Assembly: GCA_022842645.1 (NCBI GenBank) | Contig: JALHPE010000001.1 | Span: forward strand, 7,711-71,710 | Source: Minisyncoccota bacterium | GTDB lineage: Bacteria; Patescibacteriota; Minisyncoccia; Phycocordibacterales; UBA2100 | Length of the DNA stretch: 64,000 bases | Direction of reading: 5' to 3' | Shown: positions 465 through 62,240 of the stretch, one piece after another | Layout: the number at the start of each line of letters is the position of its first letter | How positions within the stretch are numbered: the stretch's first letter is position 1 | Notes under the pieces: generated by a model | Databases searched by the model: none | Seen by the model: the letters and a program-made list of their open reading frames with translations, nothing else | What the model was told of the DNA's origin: nothing | Position numbers and translations under genes: made by a program

Positions 465-1691
465 ATGGCAAAGCAAGTACGACCAGATGTGGAATCCTTT
501 GCGCGAATTCGTGTCGTTGGCGTTGGCGGCTCTGGTGGTAACACCATTAACCACATGGTCTCGTCGCATGTGATTGGCGTCGACTTTCTCGCAGTCAACA
601 CTGACGCACAGGATCTCGCAAAATCAAAAGCAAAACGCAAGATTCATATTGGTAGAAACCTTACACGCGGCCTCGGAACCGGCATGGATCCCGATTTGGG
701 AAAGCAAGCAGCTGAAGAGACACGCGAAGAGATCCAGGAAGCACTAAAAGGTTCTGACATGGTGTTTGTTACCTGCGGTATGGGCGGCGGCACTGGAACC
801 GGCGCAGCACCCGCTGTCGCAAAAATTGCACGTGAGCTTGGAGCCCTTACTGTCGGTGTTGTAACAAAGCCTTTTAGTTTTGAAGGCGCTCAACGCGGAC
901 GTCTTGCAGAGCAAGGTATTATGGAGCTCCGCAAATCAGTCGATGCAATCATCATCATTCCCAACGACAAACTCCTCTCCGTTGTCGCAAAAGAAACGGG
1001 CATTAAAAATGCGTTTGCGATGTGCGACGATATCCTGAAACAAGCTGTTGAGGGTATTTCAGATCTCATCACGACGACCGGTATCATCAACGTCGACTTT
1101 GCTGATGTACGTTCAATCATGCACAACGCTGGTTCCGCACTCATGGGTATCGGTATGGCAATCGGTGAGAAACGCGCAGAAACAGCCGCGCGTCTTGCCA
1201 TCAACTCCCCACTTCTTGAAGTGTCCATCAACGGCGCAAAGGGTGTACTCTTTTCTGTCGCAGGTGGTGATGATCTCTCTATGCTCGAAGTGCAAGAAGC
1301 GGCAAATGCGATTACTGAAGCTATTGACCCCGAGGCAAAGGTTATTTTTGGCGCCGTAACAGACGAAACTCTCAAGAAAGGACAAATCAAAGTTACTGTT
1401 ATCGCAACAGGATTCCCAGAAAATGTTGGCGGGCGTGTAGCATATCCGGCACAACCAATGCCTGCACGACTCGCAAAACGTGAGCCCGAAATGCCTCCAG
1501 TAAGAAAAATGGAGCAACCGACCCAAGCTCCTGCATCGACACCCATGCCAGCTCCTCAGATAATAAAAGAATCGACACCCCCCGTGAAAGATCAACAGAA
1601 ACCCCGCGAACTCGCGCCCCAACAAAAGCAGGATGTGAATGAAGAAGATGATATCTGGGGAGGCTTTCCTTCATTTCTTCGCAGGAAATAG
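465..1691 (+). CDS. ftsZ: Cell division GTPase FtsZ
   Basis: Tubulin/FtsZ signatures [14 protein letters not shown] and [10 protein letters not shown], and a C-terminal Pro/Gln-rich tail. The ORF track begins at 411; the ATG at 465 (MAKQVRPD...) gives a canonical N-terminus. Confidence 0.95.
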
Positions 1692-1771
1692 TCTGTAGAC
1701 TATAGTTTGTAGTCTGTAGTAAAATATAGAGACTTTTTGTTTACTACAAACTACAGTCTACACACTAAAAA
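1691..1771. repeat. Heptad-array palindromic element, copy 1: (NNNGTAG)x4, 25-nt spacer, (CTACNNN)x4, ending 3 nt before the trxB ATG
   Basis: Read directly: gtctgtag actatag tttgtag tctgtag, then a spacer, then ctacaaa ctacagt ctacaca ctaaaaa. The same architecture and long exact matches occur at 62150-62240 and 23488-23524. Confidence 0.6.
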
Positions 1772-1773
1772 CT

Positions 1774-5870: not shown

Positions 5871-6113
5871 CTTTTCTTCTTGTAGAAACTATATTCTTCT
5901 CACGAATCCACATATCTAACAGCGTATCTGCAAGATGATCTAACAATATATCCACATTAACATTTAAGTTGTTATCTGACGGATTAGATTTTGTAGCGGT
6001 CAACTGTTGGAGGAAGTTATCTTGACCCGAACTCATAAAGTTCAGGTTCGTGTGTTATGACTCGTTGCGCAAACGAATGTACAAGTTTCTAAAATTCAGT
6101 AAAAAATAAAAGT

Positions 6114-6169
6114 CGGCTATATAGCCGGATAATTTTTTTACGTTTTTTATGAAATCGGCTATATAGCCG
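6114..6169. repeat. Two copies of the perfect 14-bp palindrome cggctatatagccg (6114-6127 and 6156-6169), each followed by a T-run
   Basis: Read directly. They lie in the integrase upstream region of the element. Either tandem terminators or operator sites. Confidence 0.5.
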
Positions 6170-6484
6170 ACTTTTAACTTATCCCCAACATATGGACTTA
6201 TTCATGACAACACAAAGCGGAACCTTAACCGTCAAGAGTTGTTGTGTTGAGCGTACGAAGCAAGTAAACTGTCTACGTTCGCCCTCAAAGCGAACATTTC
6301 AAAACAAAGACCTAAACCCTCGCTTCGGCGGTGGCATGGTCTAAAAGTCGGATGGAGCGTAGGAACCCCGTCATGTGGTTGCTTCATCCGCCGTATCGGG
6401 AAACCGGTGCGTTCGCGTAAGCGAAGACCCGTGGCGGGTTTTGTGTTTTCTAAAATTCCGCCTTTACAAGAAAAGTGAACACAT

Positions 6485-12532: not shown

Positions 12533-13723
12533 ATGCGCATCCTTGCCATAGAAACCAGCTGCGACGAAACGGCTGTCTGCATCATCGAAGCAGAAGGAGA
12601 GGGGTTAGGTGTTAGGTTCCAGGTGTTAGGGAATGCCCTTCTTTCGCAAGCAGTCCACGCACAGTATGGCGGAGTTTTTCCGAGCCTAGCCCGGAGAGAA
12701 CATGAACGGAATCTTGTTCCCCTCTTCCAGAAAGCACTGGAGGAAGCGAAGTTGTTGAAGTCGGCACATAATCAAGGCGACACATCGTTGATAGAGAAGG
12801 TTTTACATCGCGAAAACGATCTGCGCCCGCAACTTGTCGCATTTTTGAAAGAGCATGGAAAACCCGATATTGATTGCATTGCGGTGACGCATGGCCCGGG
12901 GCTTGAACCAGCTCTTTGGGTTGGCGTTAATTTTGCACGCGCGCTTGCACATGCGTGGAATCTACCCGTTGTTCCGGTGAATCATATGGAAGGACATCTC
13001 ATCTTGTCGGCTTTAGCCGGACAAGATGAGAAGTATCAAGTATCAAGTATCAAGTATCAAACAAAACACAAAGTCCAATTTCCACTTCTCGCACTTCTTA
13101 TTTCTGGAGGGCACACGGAACTTGTTCTTGCGCGCGAATGGATGAAATATGAACTTCTGGGACAAACGCGTGACGATGCTGTGGGCGAGGCGTTTGATAA
13201 GGTAGCGCGCCTGCTTGATCTTCCCTACCCTGGCGGACCGGAAATAGATAAACTCGCCAAACGCGCCCGTGATGTGGGACTTACGAAGTCCCACATTGAA
13301 TTGCCGCGACCGATGATTGATACAGATGATTATGATTTCTCTTTCTCCGGGCTCAAAACCGCTGTTCGCCGCCTCGTTGAATCGAAACAACCACTGTCAG
13401 AACAAACGAAGATGGAGATTGCGCGGGAGTTCGAGGAGGCGTGTGCGGATGTGCTTGTGGCAAAGACACTCCGTGCCATTGAGGAGTACAATATCGAATC
13501 GCTGGTCGTTGGCGGCGGCGTTTCGGCAAATGAGTACATTCGCGAGCGCCTTGCGGAGAGTATTAAGAGCTATGGCTTGAGTACGAAACTGCTTATTCCC
13601 CCACGCGAGCTTGCAACCGATAATGCACTTATGATCGCACTCGCAGGCTATTTCCGTGCCCTTAACAAGGAATGCGCTGAACCAGAAACGATTCGAGCGA
13701 ATGGGAATTTGAAGTTGGTATAA
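12533..13723 (+). CDS. tsaD: tRNA N6-adenosine threonylcarbamoyltransferase TsaD (Kae1/Gcp)
   Basis: N-terminus MRILAIETSCDETAVCI, metal-binding HMEGH, and LISGGHTELV. Contains two short in-frame insertions built from simple repeats (see findings). Confidence 0.9.
   Translation: MRILAIETSCDETAVCIIEAEGEGLGVRFQVLGNALLSQAVHAQYGGVFPSLARREHERNLVPLFQKALEEAKLLKSAHNQGDTSLIEKVLHRENDLRPQLVAFLKEHGKPDIDCIAVTHGPGLEPALWVGVNFARALAHAWNLPVVPVNHMEGHLILSALAGQDEKYQVSSIKYQTKHKVQFPLLALLISGGHTELVLAREWMKYELLGQTRDDAVGEAFDKVARLLDLPYPGGPEIDKLAKRARDVGLTKSHIELPRPMIDTDDYDFSFSGLKTAVRRLVESKQPLSEQTKMEIAREFEEACADVLVAKTLRAIEEYNIESLVVGGGVSANEYIRERLAESIKSYGLSTKLLIPPRELATDNALMIALAGYFRALNKECAEPETIRANGNLKLV
12603..12632 (+). repeat. 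GGTGTTAGG-type repeat (ggttaggtgttaggttccaggtgttagg) inside the tsaD N-terminal coding region; related copy at 51461-51490
   Basis: The two loci share a 14-nt exact core taggtgttaggttc. Confidence 0.55.
13031..13058 (+). repeat. Perfect tandem (AAGTATC)x4 inside the tsaD coding sequence
   Basis: Read directly: aagtatcaagtatcaagtatcaagtatc. The 7-nt unit is not a multiple of 3. It encodes KYQVSSIKYQ, an insertion relative to canonical TsaD before the ALLISGGHT motif. Confidence 0.8.
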
Positions 13724-16292: not shown

Positions 16293-16982
16293 ATGTTCGC
16301 GCTTGAATCCTTCGCGATTGCTATTTTGGGAGGGATTTTCCCTGCACTTGCGTGGCTTTGGTTTTGGCTCAAAGAAGACACTCACCCCGAACCACGCCGC
16401 TTGATCGCACTGGCCTTTATTGGCGGCATGCTCACGGTTCTTCTTGTTGTACCTTTACAAAAATTCGCGGCGGGTATCCTCGTCACACAAACCGCCATGT
16501 TTGCGGCGTGGTCAACCATCGAGGAGTTTGCAAAATATGCCGTTGCGTGGCTTCTCGTCCTCCATCGCCGCGAGAACGACGAGCCGATAGACGCGGTTAT
16601 TTACATGGTTGCCTTGGCCCTTGGCTTCGCAGGGCTCGAAAACGCACTCTTCCTCCTCTCGCCCCTTGCCGGGGAGACTCTTGTGCAGACTGTGATTACA
16701 GGGAACCTTCGCTTCATTGGCGCAACGCTTTTGCATGTGTTCTCATCGGCAGTTGTAGGACTCTTTCTTGCGTATGCATTTTACAAATCCGTACTGGTAC
16801 GAGAACTCTACACAGCGGCAGGGGTTATCCTCGCCTCCCTTTTGCACATCGCCTTCAACTTACTTATACTCAACACGGCAGAGGAGCATCTGTTGCGTAC
16901 TTTTGCCGGAGTGTGGGTTGGCGTTATTATCGTTCTCTTTGCACTCGAATTCGTGAAGCGAATTAAGCCACGAATGCGTTAG
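16293..16982 (+). CDS. PrsW-family intramembrane metalloprotease (putative)
   Basis: Polytopic membrane protein with an EExxK motif (IEEFAKY) and a HxxxN motif (LLHIAFNLL). Confidence 0.6.
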   Translation: MFALESFAIAILGGIFPALAWLWFWLKEDTHPEPRRLIALAFIGGMLTVLLVVPLQKFAAGILVTQTAMFAAWSTIEEFAKYAVAWLLVLHRRENDEPIDAVIYMVALALGFAGLENALFLLSPLAGETLVQTVITGNLRFIGATLLHVFSSAVVGLFLAYAFYKSVLVRELYTAAGVILASLLHIAFNLLILNTAEEHLLRTFAGVWVGVIIVLFALEFVKRIKPRMR

Positions 16983-20944: not shown

Positions 20945-21015
20945 TGCGGGATAGGAGAATCGAACTCCTATCTACTGCTTGGGAAGCAGTCGTTCTGCCA
21001 CTAAACTAATCCCGC
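20945..21015 (-). tRNA. tRNA-Gly (anticodon CCC)
   Basis: Acceptor GCGGGAT/ATCCCGC, anticodon stem ACTGC/GCAGT with loop TTCCCAA, T-arm GGAGTTCGATTCTCC. Confidence 0.85.
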
Positions 21016-21061: not shown

Positions 21062-21181
21062 GACGAAAGTGGGGCGCAAAATGCTTCACGAGGGACCCCG
21101 CAGCTGGCGAGGATCTGCCTGTTTTTCAGCAGGAAAAACAGGTCTGCCCGAGGGAAGCATTTTGCGCCCCACTTTCGCGAG
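21062..21181. repeat. Nested inverted repeat: 24-nt arms cgaaagtggggcgcaaaatgcttc and gaagcattttgcgccccactttcg enclosing the palindrome cctgtttttc-agc-aggaaaaacagg
   Basis: Read directly. About 120 nt, adjacent to tRNA-Gly. MITE-like or a structured RNA. Confidence 0.5.
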
Positions 21182-21916: not shown

Positions 21917-23713
21917 TTACTCATCTCCTCCGCGCACCACCTTCAGAAACACCTCGTGAGGGATATCAACCTTCCCGCGTGCAAGCATTTTCTTCTTGCC
22001 TTTCTTTTGCTTTTCAAGAAGCTTCATTTTACGTGTGATGTCGCCGCCGTAGAGGTACCCGGTTACGTCTTTGCGCATCGCTGACTTCCTGCGCGATGCG
22101 ACGATCTTTCCATCGCATTTTGCTTGAATTTTGAGCTCGAAGAGCTGTTTCGGAAGAAGCTTTTCGAGCCGCTCAACAAGCGCTTCGGCTTCGTGGCCAA
22201 CGCGTCGTTTTGAGACGATGCGCGCAAATGCAGGCACGAGCTCGTCGGCAACAAGAATGTCCAGTCGAACCACATCCGCACTCCTCAGTCCCAGCAACTC
22301 ATATGAGAGCGATGCAAAGCCTGAAGAGACGCTTTTTAGGCGATCAAAGAAGCCTCGCATAAGCTCGCGCAGCGGCATCTCAGCTGCGAGCTTTACCTTG
22401 CCGTCGGGAAGTGTTTCTGTCTCCCCCACTACCGCTTCATGATCGAATAGAATCTGCGAAATACCGCCGAGATAACTCGGGGGTGTAATGATATCAATTG
22501 CCGCCCATGGCTCGCGCACTGATTTAAGCGTGCCGTCATCAGGAAAACGTGCAGGATTATAAATTTCCTCCACACGCCCGTCTTGGAGTGTAATCTCGTA
22601 CACAGTTGTGGGACTTGTGACCACAAGCGGTAAATCAAATTCGCGCTTCAACCGCTCGATAACAATCTCGAGATGAAGCATCCCGAGAAATCCACACCGA
22701 AATCCTTTCCCCATGACACCAGAGGACTCTTCTTCGTACGAAAGTGAAGAATCGGAGAGGCGCAGACGCTCAAGCGCCTGGCGGAGCTGTACTAAATCGT
22801 CTTGCGACTCTGGGTACACAGACGCCCAAATAACAGGCGCTGGAGCCCTGTAACCGCCGAGCGGAGCGCCACTCATGCGCGCAGAGAGCACTGTGTCGCC
22901 CACAGAGGCAATACCCGGCTTTTTAATGCCAGTCACGATGTAGCCGATTTCCCCTTCCCTAAGCTCATCGCGCGGGGTTTCGTCGGGCGTGAGGACTCCC
23001 ACTTCAAGTGCCGTAAACGAGGCGTTTGCTGCTGCAAGCTTGAGTGAATCTCCCTTTGAAACGCGCCCGCCAAAGAGTCGACAATAAATGATGACGCCGC
23101 GATGGTCGGAATATGAAAAGTCATAAACGAGTGCCTGCATTTTCTCTCCCGAGCTTCGGGGCGGAGGAATACGCTCAACAACCGCGTTCAAGAGTTCTGT
23201 AACACCAACACCTGTCTTACCTGAAGTAAGAATCACGTCGCGCTCGTCACATCCAAGCAGCATAGTGAGTTCTGTCTTCACGTCATCAACACGTGCGTGT
23301 GGTGCGTCTATTTTATTTACTACGGGGATGATCACCCTCTTCAATTCGCGCGCCGTCGAGAGAACCGAAAGTGTCTGCGCCTCAACCCCCTGTGTGGCGT
23401 CCACGAGGAGCACAACCCCTTCAACGGCCGAGAGTGCACGTGAGACTTCGTAGGCAAAATCAACGTGGCCGGGAGTATCGATCAGATTTAGTGTGTAGTT
23501 TGTAGACTGTAGTTTGTAGTTCATCCGGACGGGAGCCATTTTAATGGTGATGCCACGCTCGCGCTCGAGATCCATACGATCCAAGACCTGTTCTTTCATG
23601 GCTCGCTTTTCGATCGTGCCGGTGAGCTCGAGCATGCGATCGGCCAGGGTGGATTTCCCGTGGTCAATGTGCGCGATTATCGAAAAGTTTCTAATGTGTG
23701 AAGACATATTCAT
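21917..23713 (-). CDS. lepA: Elongation factor 4 (LepA); likely true start at the second ATG (23707)
   Basis: IRNFSIIAHIDHGKST G1 motif, DTPGHVDF, and the LepA-specific C-terminal domain ending KKGKKKML..; 598 aa. Confidence 0.95.
   Translation of the reverse strand: MNMSSHIRNFSIIAHIDHGKSTLADRMLELTGTIEKRAMKEQVLDRMDLERERGITIKMAPVRMNYKLQSTNYTLNLIDTPGHVDFAYEVSRALSAVEGVVLLVDATQGVEAQTLSVLSTARELKRVIIPVVNKIDAPHARVDDVKTELTMLLGCDERDVILTSGKTGVGVTELLNAVVERIPPPRSSGEKMQALVYDFSYSDHRGVIIYCRLFGGRVSKGDSLKLAAANASFTALEVGVLTPDETPRDELREGEIGYIVTGIKKPGIASVGDTVLSARMSGAPLGGYRAPAPVIWASVYPESQDDLVQLRQALERLRLSDSSLSYEEESSGVMGKGFRCGFLGMLHLEIVIERLKREFDLPLVVTSPTTVYEITLQDGRVEEIYNPARFPDDGTLKSVREPWAAIDIITPPSYLGGISQILFDHEAVVGETETLPDGKVKLAAEMPLRELMRGFFDRLKSVSSGFASLSYELLGLRSADVVRLDILVADELVPAFARIVSKRRVGHEAEALVERLEKLLPKQLFELKIQAKCDGKIVASRRKSAMRKDVTGYLYGGDITRKMKLLEKQKKGKKKMLARGKVDIPHEVFLKVVRGGDE
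23488..23524 (-). repeat. Half-copy of the heptad-array element inside the lepA coding sequence (encodes MNYKLQSTNYTLN)
   Basis: In the lepA sense strand, ctacaaa ctacagt ctacaaa ctacaca ctaaat. Its first 19 nt match the right arm of copy 1 (1744-1762) exactly. In plus orientation, 24 nt (agtgtgtagtttgtagactgtagt) match the left arm of copy 3 (62156-62179) exactly. Confidence 0.6.
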
Positions 23714-28065: not shown

Positions 28066-28098
28066 CGAAAATCCCCACCTGTTGGGTGGGGATTTTCA
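28066..28098 (-). terminator. Rho-independent terminator of the RNase P RNA gene
   Basis: In the RNA sense, AAAAUCCCCACC-CAACA-GGUGGGGAUUUUCG. Confidence 0.6.
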
Positions 28099-28432
28099 TG
28101 TCTACACCGTTAAGCCGGATTCTGTCGAGGGCAGTCATGTATCTGGGATGATTGTTGCCAACCACCTCAAGCGGTTCTCCGTTCAGTTTTTAGGCTGGAC
28201 GACACGACCTTGCACGCAGGTAGGAATTTTGCCGTTGCACCTCTCACGTTTCCATGAGAGCTACTCCTTGCGGAGCCTCTCACCTCTCGGCTCGAGCGTC
28301 TCTGTTCGCATCCCTTGGATTCCGCCAGCTGGCGGACCAGGCGGGCGTTACCCGCTACCATTTGAACTTAATCACGCGTGTCCGGACTTTCCTCTAGGAC
28401 TTTCGTCCCAGCGACTGCCTAGTGCAGATTTG
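28098..28432 (-). ncRNA. rnpB: RNase P RNA (bacterial type A)
   Basis: Reverse complement contains the universally conserved AGGAAAGTCCGGAC (P4 5' strand) and GGTAACGCC. The 3' segment ACAGAATCCGGCTTAACGGTG matches the conserved ACAGAAcCCGGCTTA P4 3' strand. The 5' CAGGCAGTCGC resembles E. coli CAGACAGTCGC. Length about 335 nt. Confidence 0.85.
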
Positions 28433-36701: not shown

Positions 36702-39700
36702 TTATCTCAACCCGCCCGGAGGAACCGCGCACCCGGCAGGATTTGGTTCGGCTTCGCAGAGGCATTGGATGAACGAATTGATTGGTTGTTCTGGCTCGCA
36801 GGTGCGCACGTCCTCTGGCGTAGGGTTTCCACTTTGCCCGCTGGACCCGCCCCCTCCTCCATTTCCACTGCCCGAACCGCTTCCGCCTGTGCCTACGGGC
36901 GTGCTCTGACTTCGCGCGATTTCTTCCGGCGTGAATATACGCTCCGGATCAGAATCGTCGCCACGCACACGCACCAGTGTCTCATGCAGAAGTTTATCGG
37001 TTGTATTCTTCGTGTTGCACACCAAGCCAAAACGAGTCGATTCGGTGATTGTTGGCGAACTGATAGATCCGTTCTGAGGGCCACGATGGAAGACTTTGAA
37101 GTCTGCGCTTATAACAGCGCACGTTGAGCTTCCGACATCGGTCCCGACACTCGACCACGAAAGCGTTGTTGTGGATCCAGAAGTTATGAACGAGGGATTA
37201 GCAACAATTGCACCCACGATAACCACCGGCTGCGGAGTGGATTGCGGCTCAGTCGGTGGTCGAGGAGGCTCTTCCTCCCCTCCTCCACCAAAATCAAAGA
37301 ACGCAAATAAGCCCTGGAGGAGTCCTTGCAAAACACTCATCCCACCGCGAGAGAATCCGCCCGAGCCACTGCCAGAAGAAGGAGGACTGCCGGGCACATC
37401 TCCAGAAGCAGAATCTTCAGGGGTGGAATCCCCCGGCGCACGACCATTTGTTTTTCCACTAGAACCAGAATCTGCATTGGCGCCAGGAGCACCACCTTGT
37501 CCGCCACGATCGCCGTTTGCACCCCCATCTGCAACAGATCCTACGCCGCCTCCGTCTCCTCCTGTTGCATCTTGTTGTGCCTTCTCTTCTTCTCCACTTT
37601 CACCTGGCGTAGCGGGTGCAACTCCTTGTGGCTCACCACTTTGCGATTCAGAGGGGGGCGCATCTCCAGGAGGCGTAGAAGTAAGAACACCACTATTCTG
37701 ATTTTGAATGGTCGTGTCGGGAGTAGATGGCGCTTCTGACGTAGCAGGAGTTTCTAAAGGCTCTTCTCCCCCAGGCATAATCGCATACACCCCCGCGCCA
37801 CCTAATAACATACTGACCGCCGACAAACATGAACGGAAGCCTGTACACATATCCCACGCTCTGCGTGCAACAGACGTTTGATTAGAGGGTGTATTTTGGG
37901 GCGATGCCGTGTTTACCCCTGCTCCCGAGCCGCGTGCTTGCGCCTCAGCCGTAGCCCCCCTTGCGTAATCATCAAGCGCACCTCGTGCAAGCGCGAGCAC
38001 TTGTGGATCATCTAGCTTGGCACCGTTTGCAAGTGCCCCATCAACGTCATCGAGCTTGCGTGCAGCATTGTCATACAACCCGGAAGCTGAAGTACCCTTC
38101 GTTATTACAGCCTTTTCGATCGCTACATCGCGAAGGAATTTAATCTCTGCAATCTGTGCTTCGCGCGCAGCTTGTGCGCGCGACCACTCATCAAGGCGTT
38201 TTATAAAATCATCGTTAATTGGAGCCACATCCCTACTAACTGGAGCTACAGCCTCAGGAACCACAGCGGCTGGAGGAGTGTCTGGAATGGGCGGTGGGGT
38301 TGGGGTGGTATCGCGCGGAATCGGAGGCGGCGTTTGCGGGAGCGGAGGTGGAACCGCATCAACAATCGGCGCACGTGGAAGATTTGCATTAGGCAGTGGT
38401 GACGGCGTTGTGGCTGGTACGTCTGGAAGTGCATCTCGAGCCAGGGCACCTGTGGGTAAAACGTCTCTTGTAAACCACCCACGTAACGATTGAGCTGCGT
38501 CTCCGATCGATGATCGAAGAGATGTCAAAGAGAAACCTTCCGAAACAGGCACAAGCGCATCCGCTCGATCCGGTACAAATGCACCAGCTTCTCCTAACGA
38601 ACCTTTTATTTCTTTTTCCTTTTGCCCCGGACGGAACGTGAATGGCGAAGGGGGAATGGACGGTGGAGTAGTCACTTGTGTATTTGGCGGTGGCGCAATG
38701 TCTGCAGCTACGACAGGCGCAGCAGATGGCGGGCGTGGCGTATCGCGGACAAGAGCAACAAAACTCGGTGACTCCGGAAGAGTTGGTGCAGGTGTGCCAG
38801 GCGAGCGTGGAGTTGTGGGCACAGGCACTGCCGGTGCCTCAGCCACAGCAGGAGTGTTGTCGGCAACAGTAATTACAGAAGGAGTTGGTATATCCTCCAC
38901 ATCAACTGCTCGAACAACTACATCAAAAGAACTATTCGCGATCACGGTTGGAGCAGAGATAGTATCAAAAATCGCGAGGGCAGTTACAACTTCTCCATGA
39001 GATAACGATTGGACGGTCGGGATATCTACAGCGGAGACTGTACGAACTTCCGGAATAGTAGAAACTTTTGCTAATAATGTATTTATTTCGATGACCGCAT
39101 TCTCAACTTTTGCTCCCTGAGAAGCGATTCTTGCTTTGAATTGAGCTTGGTTCGCGGCTTTGCTAAAAATATTACGTGCATAAAAGTTATCAACCTCCTG
39201 AGCCAAACTGCTCACATTTGTGCGCGCTATTTTCGCCTGCTCCAATAATCCTTCTCGAACATCACTGGGCACGAGAGGATTTTTGGCGACATTCTCTGCT
39301 GCGTCCGCTAATCTACCGACACCTGAACGCAAAGAGGGAGATGTGTTTTTTAATATCTCAAGGCCATCTAAACCTCCGATTTGCCTTGCTCGCAATAGTT
39401 CTTCCTGCATTACCTTTAAACGTCTAATACTCGGGGGTATAGCAACTTGTGCTTTTGCCAAATCTGCTTCTGCGGCAGCCACTAATTCTTTTCGAGGATT
39501 CGGTGCTATTGGCGGGTTTGTCTCAGAAACCAACATTGAAGTAGGAGAAGGGGGCGGGAGACTCTCTTCTGCTGCTCGGCGTGCACGTGCGGCAATCTCT
39601 GACAAATCGGCCAAAACAGTCGCTTGATCGGGGGAGGAACCGATGCCGGCGCGCCACACTTCGTCCATGGCAGCAAGTTGTTTACGCAAAATTTCCGTCT

Positions 39701-42700
39701 CCCCAAGTGGTAAACTTTCTCGACGAAGATCTGCAACGAGGTTCTCACGTAATACCTTCGTAGCTTGTTCTTCAGCACGACGTGCAATCTCATTCGGATC
39801 GCCTTGTATTCTACTGCGCCCGATCCCCTCTTGGTACTGCCGATTTGCAATCTCAATCGCACGCCGATTTGCTTCGACGGAGACATTTTGATTCGCAACC
39901 TCTCGAGTGGCTTCGGGACTTGGCGGTTGGTTTCCTCGAACAAAATTCCTCACGTTATTCATAAGACCTTCGATACGATTTCCTGCTGCAATGACACCCT
40001 CCGTCACACCGTATAGAATCGCATTCTGTATACCCGCACCCGAAGTCTCATTACCCACCGAATTCATAGCAGGGGTATCCCCGCTTTGAGGAACATTTGC
40101 AACAACTGTCGGGCCATCCAGAGCTTGAGGAGCATCCGCAACTACAGGTCTCGCAGCTGGTGTTGGTTCGTTTATCAATTTTGGTTCTGTGGATATCTGC
40201 GCCACATACGTCTCTGTCCTTGAAAAATCCGGACTTATAGGGCGTGTTGCGGCGATGATGGGATTATCTTGATTAACAATTGGCGTTGCCCTAACATCCA
40301 GCGGCGAAGGAACATCTGAATAGACTTGAGCAATTTGCGCTTCTACTGCTGCTTCCCTTCCTAACGCGGCCTTCATCAGACCTCCTAACCCACGATCGCC
40401 AATAGGGATTTCTGACACAACGCTCTGATCCGGCCTAAGGATAAAGGGTGATCTGCCACCATCAAGATCCTGCGCTATACGGGGAGCATCCGGAGAGACT
40501 GCGGATTCGGGCACCTGGGCAATCTGCGTACGTGGCAACTTCGCCACGGCATCGATATCTGCCTGAATAACAACATCTGCTGCCGTCATCTCTGCAATCG
40601 TAGGCTCGGTTCCCAGATCAGGGCGGCCTGCTATATTTTTTGCAAGGGCACTTTGGTATCGCTTGTATGCTTTTGTGTCTTCAAACCCAGCCTGTTTCAG
40701 TGCCGAAGCGATTGAGCGATTATATGCAAGAGAAGTTGCTACATCCGGATTCGGAGTAATTGGGTCAAGCGTGCGAGCACCGATTATCATTTTTGCCGCC
40801 TCACGTTCGCGCTGGGCAAGTTGTATTTTCGCTAGATCTTCGCTGGCTCTCGCTGGCAGACCTCCCGCCGGTGCACCCAAAGACGCTTCACGGAAGTTTG
40901 CAAACCCCGCGAGCACGTCCGCCTCACCAGTCTGGTGATTTACAATACGGATATTCGGATTCCATGCGCGAGCGGCATCAGCCATAATGAGACTGCCCAG
41001 TACCTGCCCACCATCAGGCAAATCCCCTTTTTGCATGACGGTCTCCACACCGATACCCCGGTGACCAAACTGGCGAGCATGGGCGTAGTATTCATCAAAA
41101 GGAGTGAGTATGCCTATATCCACCACTTTCTCACCGGCAATATTTGTCTGGGTTCTTCCTAGGTACGCTGACACATACACGCCTGAGCCTCTTCCGTTGT
41201 TTGCATTTGACTCAAGGATTTTGAACATATCGTATGTATTTGCACGTGTCTCGTGAAATACCAATAAGTCTCTCTGTGCAGGAGTACGGACCCTACCAAC
41301 GTTCTCACGATTAGCCCAAACGTCGTTCATATACCACAATCGAACTGTGTATGTCTCTCCATTAAATGGAATTTTTTTAACCGCAACTGAAACATCTACC
41401 TCACCTTTTCGCGCCGTCCTGACTTTCAGTGTTTGCATGGTTGCATCCGGCAATATAGGCAAACTTGATGGATTAATAGTTGCCCCCGTGCTGCACATTT
41501 TTGCGTCAGTGCAGACAGCGGTTGCAACCGCATCGTTACTCGCAGGGACAGGTGCTGTTGTATTTGTGGGCTCTGAAGTTGGGTTACTGGGAGGAACTTC
41601 GCCGTCTCCTGAGCGCACAACCGGGTTCGCGACCTCCGGAGGAGTATTTACTGCTCCCTGATTCGCATTCGGCACCTCAGCAATTGCAGTAGGCCTTGAT
41701 GTTTGAGCGTACCACTGAGCCGCTGGTTCTGAGCCGAATACTTTTGCAAGACCGTCACGTAACGCCTCATTTGTAATGGGATCCTCGATTCCATATCTTG
41801 CCAGTGCTGGATATTCTGCTTTAAAGATTCCCTTCGTTAGAGCCGCCCGAGCAGCAAGATCGTTGCGCGCAATGGGTGTAGTAAGTGTAAGTCCCCCTGT
41901 TTCTGCATGGCGCAAACGAGACAAATCATCAAAGGAACCGTTGATCACATCAGTACCAACCCACAACTTAACCACATCGTTATAAGTTTTTGCATTTACG
42001 TACGCTGGTTGGTAATCCAATTTTGCTGAAACCATAGCCGCAGCGTCTGCGTGAGAGGCAAAACATGCGTATGGAGCGTTGCAAGATATGATATTTATTT
42101 TCTCGGGCACAACCTTTGTTAAGTCAGGCTTGCCATTGACAATTGGGACATCGTTGAAAAGCTCTGGTTTGATTTTCTGTACTTCGCGCACACCTTCCCA
42201 TTTCATTCCCCCGAGATTGTTTAATTCTTTAGCAGCGGCAACATGCCTCGAACGAACGTCGACATTTCTCCATTGAGTTTGATTTCCTAAAAAACTTACC
42301 CTACTGGTATCACTACCATCGCGACCAAAAGAAAGAGTGACGGGGCTTTTCTCCCCCGTAACCACACTAGCTGACACAGAGTCTCCTGCTTGCGCAAGAC
42401 CAATCGAAGAACCTTCCGGCATAAAAAGAGAAAATGGAGGGAGCGCGGCGGGATTCGGAGTGGCTGCAAGTCCAACGATGACAGCCGCTTGCTTTAATAC
42501 ACGACCAACTGGCGTCTCGCCTATTCGAGACAAGACTGTAGGGGCGGATGGTATCAAACGATCGACTCCTGCTCCGCCTACAAGAGAATCTATCCCACTT
42601 CCCCCACTTGGAACATTTGATGGGGCATTTGAAGCGCGCATAACTGGGGGAGGTTGGATATTGCGAAGCGGAATACTCTCCACGTTATTGATTCCAGACA

Positions 42701-45700
42701 CACTTGGCACCTCGACAGCACGCCCCCTTGAAGGGATTGCCGCAGGAATCGCATCGGACACGGGCGTAATCGGCGGCTCATATAATACAAGTGCTCTACT
42801 TGGCGGAAGCGGTGCGTCTGGGCGAATACCGCTGAGTGCAGCTCTTACTTCTTGCGCATCAGGTCGCAGATCAAGCTCAGGATGGTATACACGATCCGCA
42901 AAACGTTGCGCAGCAACTGTCTCAAACTCTGAAGCGGTACCCGACCATCTTCCAGCAGTAATTTCATGGTTGAGTCCGCTAGTGACGGAGCGACCCATGC
43001 GATCCGCAAGAACCGCAGCATCAGTACTTAAACCTGCAGTTGGAGGACGAAATACCCCTGAAGCAATGGCGTAATCGTCGCGCGCAACGTCGAGAGCGAA
43101 ATTACCCAAACCCCTTCCTATGGCTCCCGCTTGTTTAAAAGTGACAATACCAAGAGGTCCGACGTATTGTGTCGAATCAACAATAAAAGCTCCAAGTGCA
43201 GAACGGGGGCTGCGCGCGAGTCCAGCGATTTGCACATCCGTGACCGGAGTAACTCCAAATATAGACGAGACGTTAGAAGCCCCATCCCACAGACTTTTCA
43301 TGACACCTCCACCAAAAAGTTTCGGGTAATTCCCCTCACGCCACGCATTTTGTACAACTTCGCCCCAATAATCTGAACGCTCCTGCAGCCACTGAGGAGG
43401 AGCTTCAGTACCTGTAATGGTATTAATTCTTTGTTGCAGAGAAGCATCGGTGACTTTGCCCTGAAGGATTTGATCAATCCGAGCGTTTGTGAGGGTCAGA
43501 TTACCCTGCGGATCGTACCATCCAGGACCTTCTGTGCCGGCGATGCCTTCCAACGTGAATGGAGTAAGCGCTGATTCAAGCATGACTCTTCCCAAACTCA
43601 TGTCCCCACGCTGATACGCATCAATCATTTCAGAGAAACTCAAATTGCTCTGGAGAGCATCTTGTTTCTGCTGAATGAGTTGCGGTAGTATTTCTCGCAT
43701 TGCAAGTTCCTCGCGCGTCATGGTCGCCGGGTCACGCTTCATAAACGCTACATAATCCGACGCACGCGGGTCGTTCGTTAGAAATCCTAGAGTATTACGG
43801 CTCGTATTAATATCGCCCTCAACGTCTGAAAGTTGTGCTCCTAGCGAAGCAATCTCCTGACGTCTATCGTAAAGAAGTCCTGTATCTCTAGGAGAAATCG
43901 CGACATCATTCAGGGCATCTATTTCAGAGCGCAACTGAAGTGCGCGCAGATTTGCTTTATCAAGCGCGCTCTGAGCGCGATACCGCTCGTCTAAGACACT
44001 TTGCACGGGATCGCTGATGCGCTCCTGATATTCCCGATTAACTTCCGCAAAACGAGCACGAGCTGCTTCAAGGTTATTTACAGCCTCAAATCGCTCTTTC
44101 TGCAACGTATCAAGTGGCGCTGCAACAGAGCTAAAGTTCGCCAGGGCTTCTTGTTGTACCCGTGCTGACGCATTTGCTTCCGCAATCGCAACGCTCCGCT
44201 CTTGGAATAATGCACCCCTCTTTGCATCAACCGATGAAAACGTCTTCGTCAAACGATCATTATCGGTATTGAATGCTTCGCGAAGTCCGTTATGTTCATT
44301 CGCTAGACTTTGATACCGTTGAAAATCTGCTTGGCTTAATTTTTTTCCATTTGCCTCCGCTTTTGCGTCCAGTGCGGAGAGCTCTGTGCGTATGGCATCC
44401 ATCCGCGCGATTCGCGCCTCTTGTTCGGGATACGTACGAACCCGCGCGATCACATCCTCCGTTTTGCTGGTCATTGCCCCCACTGTGTTTGTCTCGACTG
44501 TTGTTTTAAACGTGCGTTCCGCCATGACGCATCCGTTTGTTTGCGCACACAATGACTCTTCTGCGGCATTCTGCGCTGCAATCGCTGTATTTTTCTCCTG
44601 AATCGCGGCCTGACTACGAGCTTCTGCCTGCGCGGCATCTCGCACAACCGCCTCGCGCGCCGCCCTCATTCTTAAAACCTCCTCTTCACTCCGCCCCCCT
44701 GAAATAGATCCGTTTTGCGAAAGATTTAATTGCGTATTCTCACTATTTTTTAGAACGTCTTGCAAACGCCTCTCCGCCTGAACGACATCTTGCGCCGCTT
44801 CGATGCGATCGCGCTCGATGCGTAAGAACGTTTTGTCTGTTTCGCCAGTTTGAGTGCCTTTTTCTCCTGCAAATGTATCAATACCAACTCGAGATCCTTC
44901 GGACACCCCGGTGCTATACCCTGGCAAACCCTGTTTTCTAAATGCATCGTCGCTAGGTCCGCTTGGGGAGTTCTTAAGACCCGCCTGTTCATTAGCCGCG
45001 ATTGTGGGGTTGATCTGGTTTAGGGGATCCTGCACACCACTCGGTCCCCCGGCGTTCTGCGCAAGATACCGAAGACTCTCCTGTCGACTCGCTTCTCTCT
45101 CTACTCCGTCCAGCGCCGCAATCGCTTGGGCACGATCAGATAACTGAAGCCCCAGCGAGTCACCAAGTTTTGTAAACCATGCACGATTGTCTGGTTGTTC
45201 TTCCACCGCCGCCTTGAGCGCAAGCGCCTCGCCTGAGGATATGAGTTCCCCTCGCGCCTGTTTTTCGAGTACATATTCAGCAACTCCCTTCTGAAATTGC
45301 TCCGGCGTCACACCTTCGAATTGTTTTATAACATCTTCTATTGAAGCAAGGGAATCTAGGTTCGATTCTTCTGGGCGACTTCCCATGCTGTCGAGAATTG
45401 CTTTGCTTGTTACCAACTCCCCACTATTCACATCAACTATTTCCGCTTCTCCGAATGGGCTCTCTGTAAATTCGGTTGTGTTTAATGTGGGGTCAACGGA
45501 ACCGGTGGCTAATGTTTTCAACCCGGCCCACGCCTCTGCCGCAGTTGCTTTCGCGGTTTGCCACATTCCATTCAAGCCATCCGCAAGAGTTGAAACTGTT
45601 GACGGCCGAGATGTCGGAAGAGCAAAAGGATCAGGAGATCCTGTATTGCTGAAAGTTCCTGTCGGGCGAACAAGATCACCCAACCCCTGATAAAACGAAC

Positions 45701-46565
45701 TTCCACCGTTTGCAGCGGAGACTGAGTCTACGTACTGCTGGTATGGTGATGGACTGAAAGTCCCTGAATTATTAGCAGTGGGTAATTCAGATAAGTCGAA
45801 AGTATTTCTGCCACTCCCTTGCAGATATTCGTATAATTGCGAAGGATTGATACGCCCCTGATCGATGAGTTTTTGATAATTTGCGACGTCCCCCAAACTA
45901 CCAGTGGTATTTATTGGGGGTCGTACCGTGCCTGCCTGTACTGCATTATTAAAATTAATGTTTTGGTCTATAAGCGCCTGTTCGTAACTTGAGAGATTAG
46001 GATTTAGTGCCCTATTCATACTCTCATTCAACTGCATTTGACTTTCGTTGGGACCGAATAACTGATCCCAATAATCACCTAATTTCCCTCCTAGGGACTG
46101 CGAATCTGCAGAAACACCACTTGGAGTTCCGGGCTGACCTTGCACAATATTTTTTCCCCCAGACATCGCTTCTATTGCTTTTTGCTGCAAATCTTGGCAG
46201 GTTGTAGCTCCTGAAGGAACGGTGCAGGACTTTTCTTCGACGCCTCCACGAATACCTTGCTTCCAACATGTTTGCACACCACCGCTTAAGCCAGTAAGGT
46301 TTGCTTTGTCACACTCGATGGCCTTGGCAGCGCTTGCATCTTTATTTGTGTTAGAAGAAACAGAATTTTCTTTTTCTCCAGCTGAGACATTGTTTTGTTG
46401 TTGCGCGGGACACTTTTCAGGACACACATTTACAATAGCTCCATTCAACGCGCAATTAATCTTGCGAGCATTACCAGCACATTGTTCCTGCGCGAAAGAA
46501 GGACTAGGGATTAACAAAAGGACAGAGGAACAAATAGCAAAAAACGTGACGTGTGCACGATTCAT
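36702..46565 (-). CDS. Giant secreted/cell-surface protein (3287 aa)
   Basis: Signal peptide, Cys-rich N-terminal region, long coiled-coil stretches, Pro- and Gly-rich linkers, and a C-terminal module shared with the 869-aa protein (GGM..FF amphipathic segment, Ig-like TTTLSWSSVG domain, terminal VRTCEPEQPINSFIQCLCEAEPNPAGC). The many antisense ORFs within it are low-complexity artefacts. Confidence 0.8.
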   Translation of the reverse strand: MNRAHVTFFAICSSVLLLIPSPSFAQEQCAGNARKINCALNGAIVNVCPEKCPAQQQNNVSAGEKENSVSSNTNKDASAAKAIECDKANLTGLSGGVQTCWKQGIRGGVEEKSCTVPSGATTCQDLQQKAIEAMSGGKNIVQGQPGTPSGVSADSQSLGGKLGDYWDQLFGPNESQMQLNESMNRALNPNLSSYEQALIDQNINFNNAVQAGTVRPPINTTGSLGDVANYQKLIDQGRINPSQLYEYLQGSGRNTFDLSELPTANNSGTFSPSPYQQYVDSVSAANGGSSFYQGLGDLVRPTGTFSNTGSPDPFALPTSRPSTVSTLADGLNGMWQTAKATAAEAWAGLKTLATGSVDPTLNTTEFTESPFGEAEIVDVNSGELVTSKAILDSMGSRPEESNLDSLASIEDVIKQFEGVTPEQFQKGVAEYVLEKQARGELISSGEALALKAAVEEQPDNRAWFTKLGDSLGLQLSDRAQAIAALDGVEREASRQESLRYLAQNAGGPSGVQDPLNQINPTIAANEQAGLKNSPSGPSDDAFRKQGLPGYSTGVSEGSRVGIDTFAGEKGTQTGETDKTFLRIERDRIEAAQDVVQAERRLQDVLKNSENTQLNLSQNGSISGGRSEEEVLRMRAAREAVVRDAAQAEARSQAAIQEKNTAIAAQNAAEESLCAQTNGCVMAERTFKTTVETNTVGAMTSKTEDVIARVRTYPEQEARIARMDAIRTELSALDAKAEANGKKLSQADFQRYQSLANEHNGLREAFNTDNDRLTKTFSSVDAKRGALFQERSVAIAEANASARVQQEALANFSSVAAPLDTLQKERFEAVNNLEAARARFAEVNREYQERISDPVQSVLDERYRAQSALDKANLRALQLRSEIDALNDVAISPRDTGLLYDRRQEIASLGAQLSDVEGDINTSRNTLGFLTNDPRASDYVAFMKRDPATMTREELAMREILPQLIQQKQDALQSNLSFSEMIDAYQRGDMSLGRVMLESALTPFTLEGIAGTEGPGWYDPQGNLTLTNARIDQILQGKVTDASLQQRINTITGTEAPPQWLQERSDYWGEVVQNAWREGNYPKLFGGGVMKSLWDGASNVSSIFGVTPVTDVQIAGLARSPRSALGAFIVDSTQYVGPLGIVTFKQAGAIGRGLGNFALDVARDDYAIASGVFRPPTAGLSTDAAVLADRMGRSVTSGLNHEITAGRWSGTASEFETVAAQRFADRVYHPELDLRPDAQEVRAALSGIRPDAPLPPSRALVLYEPPITPVSDAIPAAIPSRGRAVEVPSVSGINNVESIPLRNIQPPPVMRASNAPSNVPSGGSGIDSLVGGAGVDRLIPSAPTVLSRIGETPVGRVLKQAAVIVGLAATPNPAALPPFSLFMPEGSSIGLAQAGDSVSASVVTGEKSPVTLSFGRDGSDTSRVSFLGNQTQWRNVDVRSRHVAAAKELNNLGGMKWEGVREVQKIKPELFNDVPIVNGKPDLTKVVPEKINIISCNAPYACFASHADAAAMVSAKLDYQPAYVNAKTYNDVVKLWVGTDVINGSFDDLSRLRHAETGGLTLTTPIARNDLAARAALTKGIFKAEYPALARYGIEDPITNEALRDGLAKVFGSEPAAQWYAQTSRPTAIAEVPNANQGAVNTPPEVANPVVRSGDGEVPPSNPTSEPTNTTAPVPASNDAVATAVCTDAKMCSTGATINPSSLPILPDATMQTLKVRTARKGEVDVSVAVKKIPFNGETYTVRLWYMNDVWANRENVGRVRTPAQRDLLVFHETRANTYDMFKILESNANNGRGSGVYVSAYLGRTQTNIAGEKVVDIGILTPFDEYYAHARQFGHRGIGVETVMQKGDLPDGGQVLGSLIMADAARAWNPNIRIVNHQTGEADVLAGFANFREASLGAPAGGLPARASEDLAKIQLAQREREAAKMIIGARTLDPITPNPDVATSLAYNRSIASALKQAGFEDTKAYKRYQSALAKNIAGRPDLGTEPTIAEMTAADVVIQADIDAVAKLPRTQIAQVPESAVSPDAPRIAQDLDGGRSPFILRPDQSVVSEIPIGDRGLGGLMKAALGREAAVEAQIAQVYSDVPSPLDVRATPIVNQDNPIIAATRPISPDFSRTETYVAQISTEPKLINEPTPAARPVVADAPQALDGPTVVANVPQSGDTPAMNSVGNETSGAGIQNAILYGVTEGVIAAGNRIEGLMNNVRNFVRGNQPPSPEATREVANQNVSVEANRRAIEIANRQYQEGIGRSRIQGDPNEIARRAEEQATKVLRENLVADLRRESLPLGETEILRKQLAAMDEVWRAGIGSSPDQATVLADLSEIAARARRAAEESLPPPSPTSMLVSETNPPIAPNPRKELVAAAEADLAKAQVAIPPSIRRLKVMQEELLRARQIGGLDGLEILKNTSPSLRSGVGRLADAAENVAKNPLVPSDVREGLLEQAKIARTNVSSLAQEVDNFYARNIFSKAANQAQFKARIASQGAKVENAVIEINTLLAKVSTIPEVRTVSAVDIPTVQSLSHGEVVTALAIFDTISAPTVIANSSFDVVVRAVDVEDIPTPSVITVADNTPAVAEAPAVPVPTTPRSPGTPAPTLPESPSFVALVRDTPRPPSAAPVVAADIAPPPNTQVTTPPSIPPSPFTFRPGQKEKEIKGSLGEAGAFVPDRADALVPVSEGFSLTSLRSSIGDAAQSLRGWFTRDVLPTGALARDALPDVPATTPSPLPNANLPRAPIVDAVPPPLPQTPPPIPRDTTPTPPPIPDTPPAAVVPEAVAPVSRDVAPINDDFIKRLDEWSRAQAAREAQIAEIKFLRDVAIEKAVITKGTSASGLYDNAARKLDDVDGALANGAKLDDPQVLALARGALDDYARGATAEAQARGSGAGVNTASPQNTPSNQTSVARRAWDMCTGFRSCLSAVSMLLGGAGVYAIMPGGEEPLETPATSEAPSTPDTTIQNQNSGVLTSTPPGDAPPSESQSGEPQGVAPATPGESGEEEKAQQDATGGDGGGVGSVADGGANGDRGGQGGAPGANADSGSSGKTNGRAPGDSTPEDSASGDVPGSPPSSGSGSGGFSRGGMSVLQGLLQGLFAFFDFGGGGEEEPPRPPTEPQSTPQPVVIVGAIVANPSFITSGSTTTLSWSSVGTDVGSSTCAVISADFKVFHRGPQNGSISSPTITESTRFGLVCNTKNTTDKLLHETLVRVRGDDSDPERIFTPEEIARSQSTPVGTGGSGSGSGNGGGGGSSGQSGNPTPEDVRTCEPEQPINSFIQCLCEAEPNPAGCAVPPGGLR

Positions 46566-51459: not shown

Positions 51460-51460
51460 A

Positions 51461-51490
51461 AGGTTTTAGGTTCTAGGTGTTAGGTTCTAG
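51461..51490. repeat. GGTGTTAGG-type repeat (aggttttaggttctaggtgttaggttctag) in the groES-groEL spacer
   Basis: Shares a 14-nt exact core with 12603-12632. Confidence 0.55.
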
Positions 51491-51493
51491 TAA

Positions 51494-62014: not shown

Positions 62015-62120
62015 AATACATCAAGAGTGCGGTGAAGGTTCTGGCCTTTCGATCCGCCCCCAACCCCTCTTCCGAGGACGGTGGGAAACCAGTCCTTCGG
62101 GCAGATGCACTATTTAGATG
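62015..62120 (+). promoter_or_regulatory. SAM-I (S-box) riboswitch-like leader of metK
   Basis: CATC-AAGAG-TGCGGTGAAGG-CTGGCC...CCCCCAACC...GGTGGGAAACC...GCAGATG resembles the S-box consensus (AAGAG, GGnGGAGGGA, CTGGCCC, GCAACC, GGTGCnAAnnCC, P1 closing GATG). Followed by a terminator hairpin. Canonical position upstream of metK. Confidence 0.5.
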
Positions 62121-62146
62121 TCTCCCGTATGGGAGCTTTTTATTTA
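62121..62146 (+). terminator. Expression-platform terminator (tctcccgtatgggag plus TTTTTATTT)
   Basis: Hairpin plus U-run directly after the riboswitch-like element. Confidence 0.5.
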
Positions 62147-62149
62147 CCA

Positions 62150-62240
62150 GTCTGTAGTGTGTAGTTTGTAGACTGTAGTCGAGAAATTCCTCGCAACGCA
62201 CATACTACAAACTACAATCTACTTTCTACAAACTATTCAT
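62150..62240. repeat. Heptad-array palindromic element, copy 3 (gtctgtag tgtgtag tttgtag actgtag, 25-nt spacer, ctacaaa ctacaat ctacttt ctacaaa ctattcat) ending at the metK ATG
   Basis: Read directly; 24-nt exact match to the lepA copy. Confidence 0.6.

Follow-up and report, generated by a model that had tools for sequence, protein, structure and literature searches.

In-frame heptanucleotide array in the lepA gene of a Kaiserbacterium and related arrays preceding start codons

Heptad array within the lepA gene

A 64,000-nt stretch of contig JALHPE010000001.1 (assembly GCA_022842645.1, Minisyncoccota bacterium), referred to below as the window, carries a tandem array of 7-nt units (heptads) within lepA, the gene encoding translation factor LepA (EF4). 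The array is read in frame and does not change the length of the protein. On balance, we favour the view that it is a passive repeat array, subject to concerted evolution at the DNA level and located in a permissive, sequence-compatible loop of LepA.

The product of the lepA open reading frame (ORF; Table 1) contains the Pfam domains GTP_EFTU, EFG_III, EFG_C and LepA_C. The true start of the gene is likely to be the second ATG (23707), which would give a protein of 596 aa, as in relatives. The tract consists of 35 nt, i.e. five 7-base units of the CTACANN type: the sense strand reads AA followed by CTACAAA, CTACAGT, CTACAAA, CTACACA and CTAAAT, and reading on from the last of these gives CTAAATC as the fifth unit. 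Tandem Repeats Finder identified the array at 23489-23521 (period 7, 4.7 copies, 80% matches), and it thus represents a head-to-tail 7-nt unit in at least three copies. The original prediction, made from the sequence of the window, had placed the repeat at 23488-23524. The quoted heptad sequence was found on the minus strand without mismatches (23486-23519; 0 occurrences expected in shuffles), so the location was right, but the ends were misplaced by 2-3 nt, since the full loop covers 23486-23521.

The array encodes a surface loop, the hairpin located between motifs G2 (RGITIK) and G3 (DTPGH); it begins to be read approximately 190 nt into the ORF and is not followed by a start codon. Alignment with the hairpin region of Aquifex LepA (2YWE), which reads FYKAKDGNTYKLHL, places the tract at an apparently fold-compatible, in-frame position; the hairpin of Kaiserbacteria has the form x-W/Y-K...Y-x-L-N. 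As had been claimed, the tract is length-neutral: most of the 120 homologues compared, and most Kaiserbacteria LepA proteins, likewise have a loop of 12 residues. It is one residue shorter than that of Aquifex LepA and also than that of Escherichia coli LepA (the sequence of the latter as quoted in the original prediction). The lepA ORF was intact in every assembly, the tract was present in Logan contig L001, and the same protein segment was found on 9 contigs (P0242). At the RNA level the tract is predicted to be unstructured (minimum free energy -4.3 kcal/mol, z = +0.9), and an inverted-repeat search of the window revealed no partner arm for it.

Identity of the lepA tract to elements preceding trxB and metK

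Comparison of the tract with the remainder of the window revealed two extended matches. Positions 23489-23513 are identical (25/25 nt) to 62155-62179, the left arm of a palindromic heptad element in the metK leader, and positions 23501-23520 match (20/20 nt, by eye) the reverse complement of 1743-1762, in the right arm of a similar element that fills the ftsZ-trxB gap. Both identities had been predicted, with lengths (24 and 19 nt, respectively) that needed correction. The repeat search listed the trxB arm against lepA only as a wider 41-nt arm with 85% complementarity. The pattern TAGNNTGTAGNNTGTAG (up to 1 mismatch) gave 15 matches, all of them in the lepA tract and the trxB and metK elements (0 expected), and four CTA/TAG triplets at a period of 7 occurred 6 times in the window, compared with 0 occurrences at periods 5, 6 and 8-11. 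Heptad arrays are therefore present in the window beyond chance.

The peptide MNYKLQSTNYTLNL was subjected to synonymous resampling using the codon usage of the window. Five in-phase CTA triplets were obtained in 0/20000 resampled loops, and an arm match of at least 25 nt in 0/3000 (maximum, 21 nt). Since resampling never yields the match, the peptide does not account for it, and an origin of the tract by chance or codon usage was ruled out by the shuffles and the resampling together. The match at the DNA level, with no change in length, agrees with the earlier proposal that the coding sequence was converted to the repeat rather than interrupted by an insertion.

The lepA tract shares not only units but also their order with the metK arm (AGT-AAA-ACA) and with the trxB arm (AAA-AGT...ACA-CTAAA), which points to copying among the three loci. 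To judge from their sequences, the CTACANN copies at trxB, metK and lepA look like a lineage-specific set. As lepA is an old array site (see below), it is as plausible a donor as a recipient. The tract had been called a half-copy of the palindromic element; it is better described as an orphan array that draws on the same vocabulary of heptads. No exact 24-nt match to the tract was found in viral contigs, by which a phage origin was ruled out.

The lepA loop in related bacteria

The best LepA matches belong to Candidatus Kaiserbacteria and other Patescibacteria, with a maximum amino-acid identity of 94%. The nucleotide alignment of lepA from the nearest relatives, which had been suggested as a check, gave an identity of only 77-80%; the sister lineage and close relatives carry ordinary loops, and members of other clades carry arrays of their own. 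Across the 120 homologues the loop has a hypervariable sequence and, in some cases, a different length, and no other 12-residue stretch of LepA varies as much among the six closest proteins (mean pairwise difference 0.58 vs 0.067). We considered rapid turnover of the loop by patch replacement (1/10 identical residues in the loop vs 95.6% elsewhere), but dropped this idea because, at a lepA nucleotide identity of only 77-80%, neutral drift of an unconstrained loop suffices to explain the divergence.

In a loop-masked neighbour-joining tree of LepA (constructed without support values), heptad-type loops of the form xY(K/T/V/R)L(Q/N/R)xxxY(T/V)LN occur in three separate clades. When the loop DNA was split into 7-nt units from the third base of the first loop codon, CTA arrays were found at the identical lepA site and in the identical phase in every heptad-type lineage, with unit sequences specific to each lineage: CTACAGA, CTACAGA, CCACAGA and CTACGTA in L132; CTACGTT, CTACGTT, CTACAAA and CTATACT in L005; CTATACC, CTAAACG, CTATACC and CTATACG in L007; CTACACG, CTAAACG, CTACTCG and CTATACG in L008. 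Each of the eight heptad-type loci contains an array of five units. Self-similarity at lag 7 exceeded that of synonymous resamples in five lineages (window, p = 0.0027; L007, p = 0.0006; L132, p = 0.0014; L005, p = 0.0038; L008, p = 0.0135) and was at chance level in non-heptad loops; no heptad periodicity was detected in the lepA loops of the sister lineage (L130/131) or of L002 and L003.

The occurrence of other units at the same site and phase in three clades means that the lepA tract is more than a copy recently derived from the trxB and metK elements, and the single event implied by the original prediction can no longer be upheld. The hairpin of LepA appears instead, from these comparisons, to be a recurrent or long-maintained site of heptad arrays that are homogenised within each lineage. 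A search for partner arrays of the same flavour in the loci of relatives, which are short, gave a weak match in L008 only: its lepA and intergenic arrays are both of the TAGC type, whereas the arrays of the window are of the TAG[T/A]NTG type. In L008 (17619-17665 and 4201-4217) the TAGC-type TAG-N4 arrays start at the stop codon of an L33 gene and run into an SD-like (Shine-Dalgarno-like) GGAG before a small ORF; the lepA array of this genome reads TAGC(G) on that strand.

Heptad arrays preceding trxB, metK and groEL

The window contains three non-coding arrays (Table 1), each located close to a start codon with no SD site in between. On the mRNA strand all of them consist of G-poor CTA-N4 units that run up to the AUG. 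Pfam analysis confirmed the identities of trxB, metK, groES/groEL, ftsZ and tsaD. The first TAG of the trxB element is the stop codon of ftsZ, and the right arm adjoins the ATG of trxB; the right arm of the metK element stops 5 nt before the metK ATG at 62241. As RNA, both elements are predicted to form hairpins (-31.4 kcal/mol, z = -4.96 for trxB; -28.5 kcal/mol, z = -4.0 for metK). The groEL array has no inverted partner and no SD site, and is unstructured. A CTACAAG/CTACAAC array directly precedes a groEL-like start codon in an unrelated Parcubacteria genome (L056, approximately 1455-1560).

Table 1. Position of the heptad arrays and other features within the window.
Feature	Position (nt)	Strand	Remarks
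lepA (EF4) ORF	21917-23713	-	598 aa; ORF list, Pfam
In-frame heptad array in lepA	23486-23521	-	12-codon loop; encodes NYKLQSTNYTLN
Palindromic heptad element, ftsZ-trxB gap	1689-1773	+	between ftsZ (411-1691) and TrxB-like gene (1774-2700); left arm TAG-N4 x5, 1689-1720; right arm CTA-N4 x5, 1743-1773
Palindromic heptad element, metK leader	62148-62235	+	left arm 62148-62179; right arm 62204-62235
SAM-I riboswitch and terminator-like hairpin	62015-62143	+	aptamer (RF00162) 62015-62111, 44.2 bits (gathering 44.4), E = 7.5e-9; hairpin with T run at about 62122-62143 (by eye)
Single-armed heptad array, groES-groEL gap	51460-51493	-	CTAGAAC CTAACAC CTAGAAC CTAAAAC CTT, then ATG
In-frame heptad array in tsaD	12600-12630	+	tsaD at 12533-13723 (+); TTAGGTG TTAGGTT CCAGGTG TTAGGGA
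Perfect in-frame heptad array in tsaD	13031-13060	+	AAGTATC x4.3
Giant ORF	36702-46565	-	3287 aa
LOOT RNA (RF03000)	6309-6425	+	76.1 bits
Bacterial RNase P class A	28095-28430	-	123.8 bits
Inverted repeat	6107-6176		perfect, 21 nt, 28-nt spacer
Inverted repeat	21064-21177		31 nt, 90% complementary, 52-nt spacer; near tRNA gene (20945-21015)

Since a SAM-I (S-adenosylmethionine) riboswitch and a terminator-like hairpin lie upstream, the metK element belongs to the transcribed leader, and the possibility that it contains a promoter was rejected for the same reason. A riboswitch and terminator arranged in this way upstream of metK are visible in many related metK loci. Scanning of the whole window against Rfam at gathering thresholds gave no hit at any heptad element.

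In relatives, the same position of the metK leader is occupied by arrays of other flavours (L136, L140) or by a vestige (L135), or carries none (L134). In L219/L220 (MetK 92% identical) the riboswitch and terminator are followed directly by the ATG, with no heptad element, and L003, from the same sample as L219, has an ordinary loop in a LepA that is 93% identical. If the shared sample represents a single genome, both the metK element and the lepA array would be missing from it. The metK leader was identical in five samples of the window's own population, i.e. no copy-number variation of its element was detected in them. The sister lineage L131 has a palindromic heptad element of its own (652-738; TAGTTNN x4, spacer, CTAGNNN x4), located upstream of a gene for a tetratricopeptide repeat (TPR) protein.

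SD-like motifs at -5 to -15 were found in only about 3/37 genes of the window, and a TAnnAT box is placed 6-8 nt before the ATG of many of them (e.g. upstream of the starts at 16293, 14049, 28041, 34843, 46565, 58531, 36676 and 12533). This organization of the start regions suggests that mRNAs of this Kaiserbacterium may be mostly leaderless. The arrays abut the AUG of genes that cannot be leaderless, namely trxB after ftsZ, metK after the SAM riboswitch and groEL after groES.

In-frame arrays in tsaD and in other genomes

The lepA tract is not the only coding array of the window. The first of two arrays in the essential gene tsaD (12600-12630) encodes GLGVRFQVLGN in place of the DWKAGFDYQVLGN of relatives, and the sole unit in which TAG would be read in frame has CAG. 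The second (13031-13060) adds 12 residues (EKYQVSSIKYQT) that the TsaD proteins of L002 and L003 lack.

A collection of genomes was scanned with the pattern CTACANN x3 + CTA. Many phyla and many pure tandem repeats were among the matches listed, and, as the scan was run without a control heptad, they serve as examples only and give no relative frequency. Among these matches, units of the CTACANN class were widespread across phyla, and in-frame arrays were detected in Pfam-confirmed genes, mostly of bacteria of the candidate phyla radiation (CPR). The hosts include LigA (Peribacteria), TsaE, MurB (Wildermuthbacteria), a Mur ligase (Parcubacteria), Lgt (Uhrbacteria), four tandem pilin genes (Saccharibacteria), Der and FemAB. 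The encoded peptides are of the (S/T)TNYKLQ(S/T)T type (e.g. STNYKLQST) and recur in LigA, MurB, Lgt and the pilins. Long pure CTACAGA arrays were listed for a Pasteurellaceae genome (L052). In the Saccharibacteria genome (L030, 781-2656), each of the four pilin-like genes has an in-frame CTACAAG array in the leader peptide, directly before the N-methylation motif (..PTSYKLQATHS..GFTLVEM), and additional heptads of the AAGAATC type are located upstream.

Comparison with known repeat systems

Heptanucleotide repeats are the most over-represented long simple sequence repeats (LSSRs) of many bacteria, and their origin and role are unexplained (PMC4692102, PMC4679880). Examples are the short tandemly repeated repetitive (STRR) sequences of heterocystous cyanobacteria, the 7-nt simple sequence repeats (SSRs) of Mrazek et al. 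2007 and the GGGAATC arrays of Xanthomonas (PMC4692102, PMC4679880). Judged by sequence features, these repeats and the start-codon-proximal TAACTGA repeats seem to be the closest kinds to the arrays described here. In common with LSSRs and STRRs, they are short 7-nt tandem arrays far above chance, often intergenic and sometimes organized as inverted stem-loop pairs, of unknown function. They differ in having 4-5 units that are imperfect at two positions per unit, and in that half of the arrays of the window lie in frame, at fixed length, within conserved genes. Copy-number polymorphism, typical of LSSRs and STRRs, was observed neither among the five samples of the metK leader nor among the eight lepA loci.

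TAACTGA repeats are known from marine Beggiatoaceae, cyanobacteria and Bacteroidetes (MacGregor 2015, PMC4679880), and proposals resembling ours for the leader arrays (see below) have been made for them and for the heptamers of Nostoc (bioRxiv 10.1101/2022.06.06.494920). The resemblance is considerable: the heptamer arrays stop a few nt from start codons where SD sites are rare, a role in translation has been proposed, one orientation has stops in all three frames and the other is readable, and a minority of copies lie within ORFs. However, the units found here (CTACANN, CTANNAC, AAGTATC) are different, as is the phylum. The ORF copies of TAACTGA are mostly located at protein ends or in hypothetical proteins, whereas those described here occupy internal loops of LepA and TsaD (and, elsewhere, of LigA, MurB and others), and recurrence at the same site across lineages, as seen here, has not been described for TAACTGA repeats.

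Rickettsia palindromic elements (RPEs) are insertions of palindromic DNA, about 150 bp in size, by which the host protein becomes longer (PMC10969869). They share with the present arrays the in-frame residence of repeat DNA in unrelated housekeeping genes, a recurring peptide and a fold-compatible position. The lepA tract, in contrast, is non-palindromic and length-neutral; neither a palindrome of RPE size (roughly 100-150 bp) nor lengthening of the protein was observed.

HutP recognises XAG triplets separated by 4 nt and thus spaced in 7-nt registers (PMC2425495). Exactly this XAG-N4 register is found in the TAG-N4 arms of the leaders, which comprise 4-5 repeats and lie about 22-29 nt from a second array. 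The latter is inverted rather than direct, however, and the strand common to the leader arrays and the lepA mRNA is CUA-N4. The lepA mRNA itself thus carries no XAG-N4 sites (UAG-N4 is on the antisense strand), whereas the left arms of the leaders carry UAG-N4 x4-5. The binding sites of TRAP are comparable to those of the HutP type.

Repetitive extragenic palindromic (REP) sequences and REPINs (REP doublets forming hairpins) have a GTAG head and are mobilised by RAYT transposases. GTAG/CTAC likewise forms the invariant core of every unit described here, and the trxB and metK elements are inverted doublets that are predicted to fold into long hairpins. However, a distinct REP stem following one GTAG is lacking, the arms consist of tandem heptads, the 64 kb contain only a small family, and the lepA tract is not an inverted doublet.

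Origin and possible role of the lepA array

The interpretation that we favour on balance, i.e. a passive array under concerted evolution, would make the lepA tract a coding-embedded member of a genome-wide class of short CTA-N4 heptad arrays (here CTACANN). Such arrays may be homogenised by replication slippage and/or short-patch gene conversion, both within an array and between the dispersed arrays of one genome. We infer concerted evolution because the units of an array are alike beyond what the protein needs and because their flavours at one and the same site are lineage-specific. The lepA array may survive as it falls in the least constrained stretch of the protein, and as CTACAAA-type units, which in this frame encode Y-K, L-Q and (S/T)-T-N, give x-Y-K-L-Q-S-T-N-Y-T-L-N, thus keeping the conserved Y-K...Y-x-L-N and rewriting only the turn. 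The canonical hairpin contains two TACAAA-like stretches approximately 21 nt (three units) apart, plausible seeds through which the site may have been repeatedly hit or maintained. Most likely, the lepA array has no function of its own.

The non-coding CTA-N4 arrays, in turn, may serve as SD-independent ribosome landing sites at leadered starts, as their position and composition suggest. In elements that have an inverted TAG-N4 arm, the landing site would be masked by a hairpin of approximately -30 kcal/mol; in the case of trxB, the left arm might be unfolded by ribosomes that reach the stop codon of ftsZ and terminate there.

Several observations weigh against this interpretation. The invariance of the metK leader in five samples and of the number of lepA units in every lineage leaves slippage and conversion with no direct sign, i.e. 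no copy-number change was seen. Only two genomes show that the lepA and intergenic arrays of one genome match in flavour. The neighbour-joining tree lacks support values, and an apparent polyphyly could result from recombination among lineages. The translational role of the leader arrays is deduced from position and composition alone. Finally, the synonymous-site periodicity across lineages could equally reflect selection at the nucleotide level, i.e. function, the closest lepA genes being only 77-80% identical.

A function at the nucleotide level is the main rival of a passive array, although we regard it as considerably less probable. According to this explanation, the tract is a cis-element bound by a trans-acting factor that reads CUA-N4 RNA arrays, and selection on nucleotides keeps the periodicity. 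Ribosomal protein S1, a cold-shock-domain protein or a multimeric reader with a 7-nt register similar to HutP might act as the factor and couple LepA synthesis to that of TrxB, MetK and GroEL. The periodicity that synonymous sites retain in at least five lineages, which belong to three clades, despite saturated synonymous divergence, is consistent with this proposal, as are the sense-strand CTA-N4 orientation common to lepA and all three start-codon-proximal arrays, the reuse of the array position in the metK leader across lineages, the precedent of HutP (PMC2425495) and the earlier suggestion that heptamer repeats adjacent to start codons are sites for regulators (PMC4679880; bioRxiv 10.1101/2022.06.06.494920). 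On the other hand, sister lineages with LepA identities of 93-96% have ordinary, non-periodic loops, which indicates that the tract is dispensable. Moreover, the unit sequences vary widely between lineages, no candidate factor was identified, the lepA array is followed by no start codon, and in-frame arrays in many unrelated genes fit passive spread better than a regulon. A bolder and rather doubtful extension of the same idea is that Kaiserbacteria and other CPR bacteria use CUA-N4 arrays as a regulatory code, or as an SD-independent signal for translation, which a factor would read in 7-nt registers; in-frame copies in housekeeping genes such as lepA would then be kept, at the nucleotide level, as nodes of a network. 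If this were true, the in-frame copies might act as a sponge for the factor or pair with the UAG-N4 arms of the leaders, linking LepA output to the expression of trxB, metK and groEL.

It seems unlikely that the lepA tract acts by RNA-RNA pairing in trans, in which the UAG-N4 left arm of metK (or, more weakly, of trxB) would bind to the lepA mRNA and thereby open the leader hairpin or block lepA translation. The potential for antisense pairing noted in the original prediction does exist: the tract and the metK left arm are perfectly complementary over 25 nt, and their predicted duplex (-45.7 kcal/mol) is more stable than that formed by the leader's own arms (-26.8 kcal/mol), whereas the respective values for trxB are nearly equal (-30.1 vs -29.7 kcal/mol). 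The unstructured tract should be accessible, and the metK element, being downstream of the riboswitch, is transcribed. However, the intramolecular hairpin has the kinetic advantage, and ribosomes would strip a duplex from a tract inside a translated ORF. Both partners are missing from the related sample mentioned above, if it is indeed one genome, and no matching leader arm was found at the (short) loci of other genomes. The 25-nt identity itself is also partly expected from a small shared heptad vocabulary (about 0.01-0.1, a rough estimate).

We consider it very improbable that half of a mobile palindromic element, similar to an RPE or a miniature inverted-repeat transposable element (MITE), was inserted in frame into lepA. 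Dispersed palindromic copies are indeed present at 1689-1773 and 62148-62235, and residence in housekeeping genes resembles that of RPEs (PMC10969869). However, the RPE-like behaviour ascribed to the tract found no support: nothing was inserted, as there is no gain in length with respect to relatives, and the 35 nt include no second arm, target duplication or fold (z = +0.9). The arrays of other clades, at the same site and phase, use other units, and viral contigs contain no exact copy.

Still less credible is a contingency locus, in which gain or loss of a 7-nt unit near the 5' end of lepA would toggle the expression of the gene. Loci of this kind classically have a repeat of non-triplet length close to the beginning of an ORF, and the long pure CTACAGA arrays of L052 could be cited in its favour, but the lepA array has only five, imperfect units, and five in every lineage, the ORF is intact in every assembly with the same protein on 9 contigs, and its counterpart in the metK leader shows no variation among five samples. 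Chance, or convergence of the protein on a favoured hairpin sequence, finds some basis in the Y...Y spacing of seven residues and the L-N conserved in LepA and in the intrinsic 21-nt period of YTLN...YTLN loops, but it is refuted for the window by the resampling results (0/20000 for CTA phase, 0/3000 for the 25-nt arm; lag-7 p = 0.0006-0.014 in five lineages) and is partly conceivable for the weakest cases, L009 and L004, only.

Significance

The novelty of the lepA array consists in the presence of a non-triplet repeat, at fixed length and in frame, in the conserved gene of a translation factor, and in its recurrence at the same site and phase in separate lineages with units of their own. Arrays of the same kind are found in loops of other core genes, both in this genome and in other CPR phyla, which means that short segments of essential proteins are being written by repeat DNA. 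It is precisely at start codons unable to be leaderless that the non-coding arrays are placed, in an organism with almost no SD sites, and this provides a testable link between heptamer repeats and SD-independent initiation. The arrays also offer a natural system for the analysis of concerted evolution between coding and non-coding copies of a repeat. Repeat arrays of this type, placed before start codons and inside housekeeping genes, reflect a wider, little-described habit of these bacteria.

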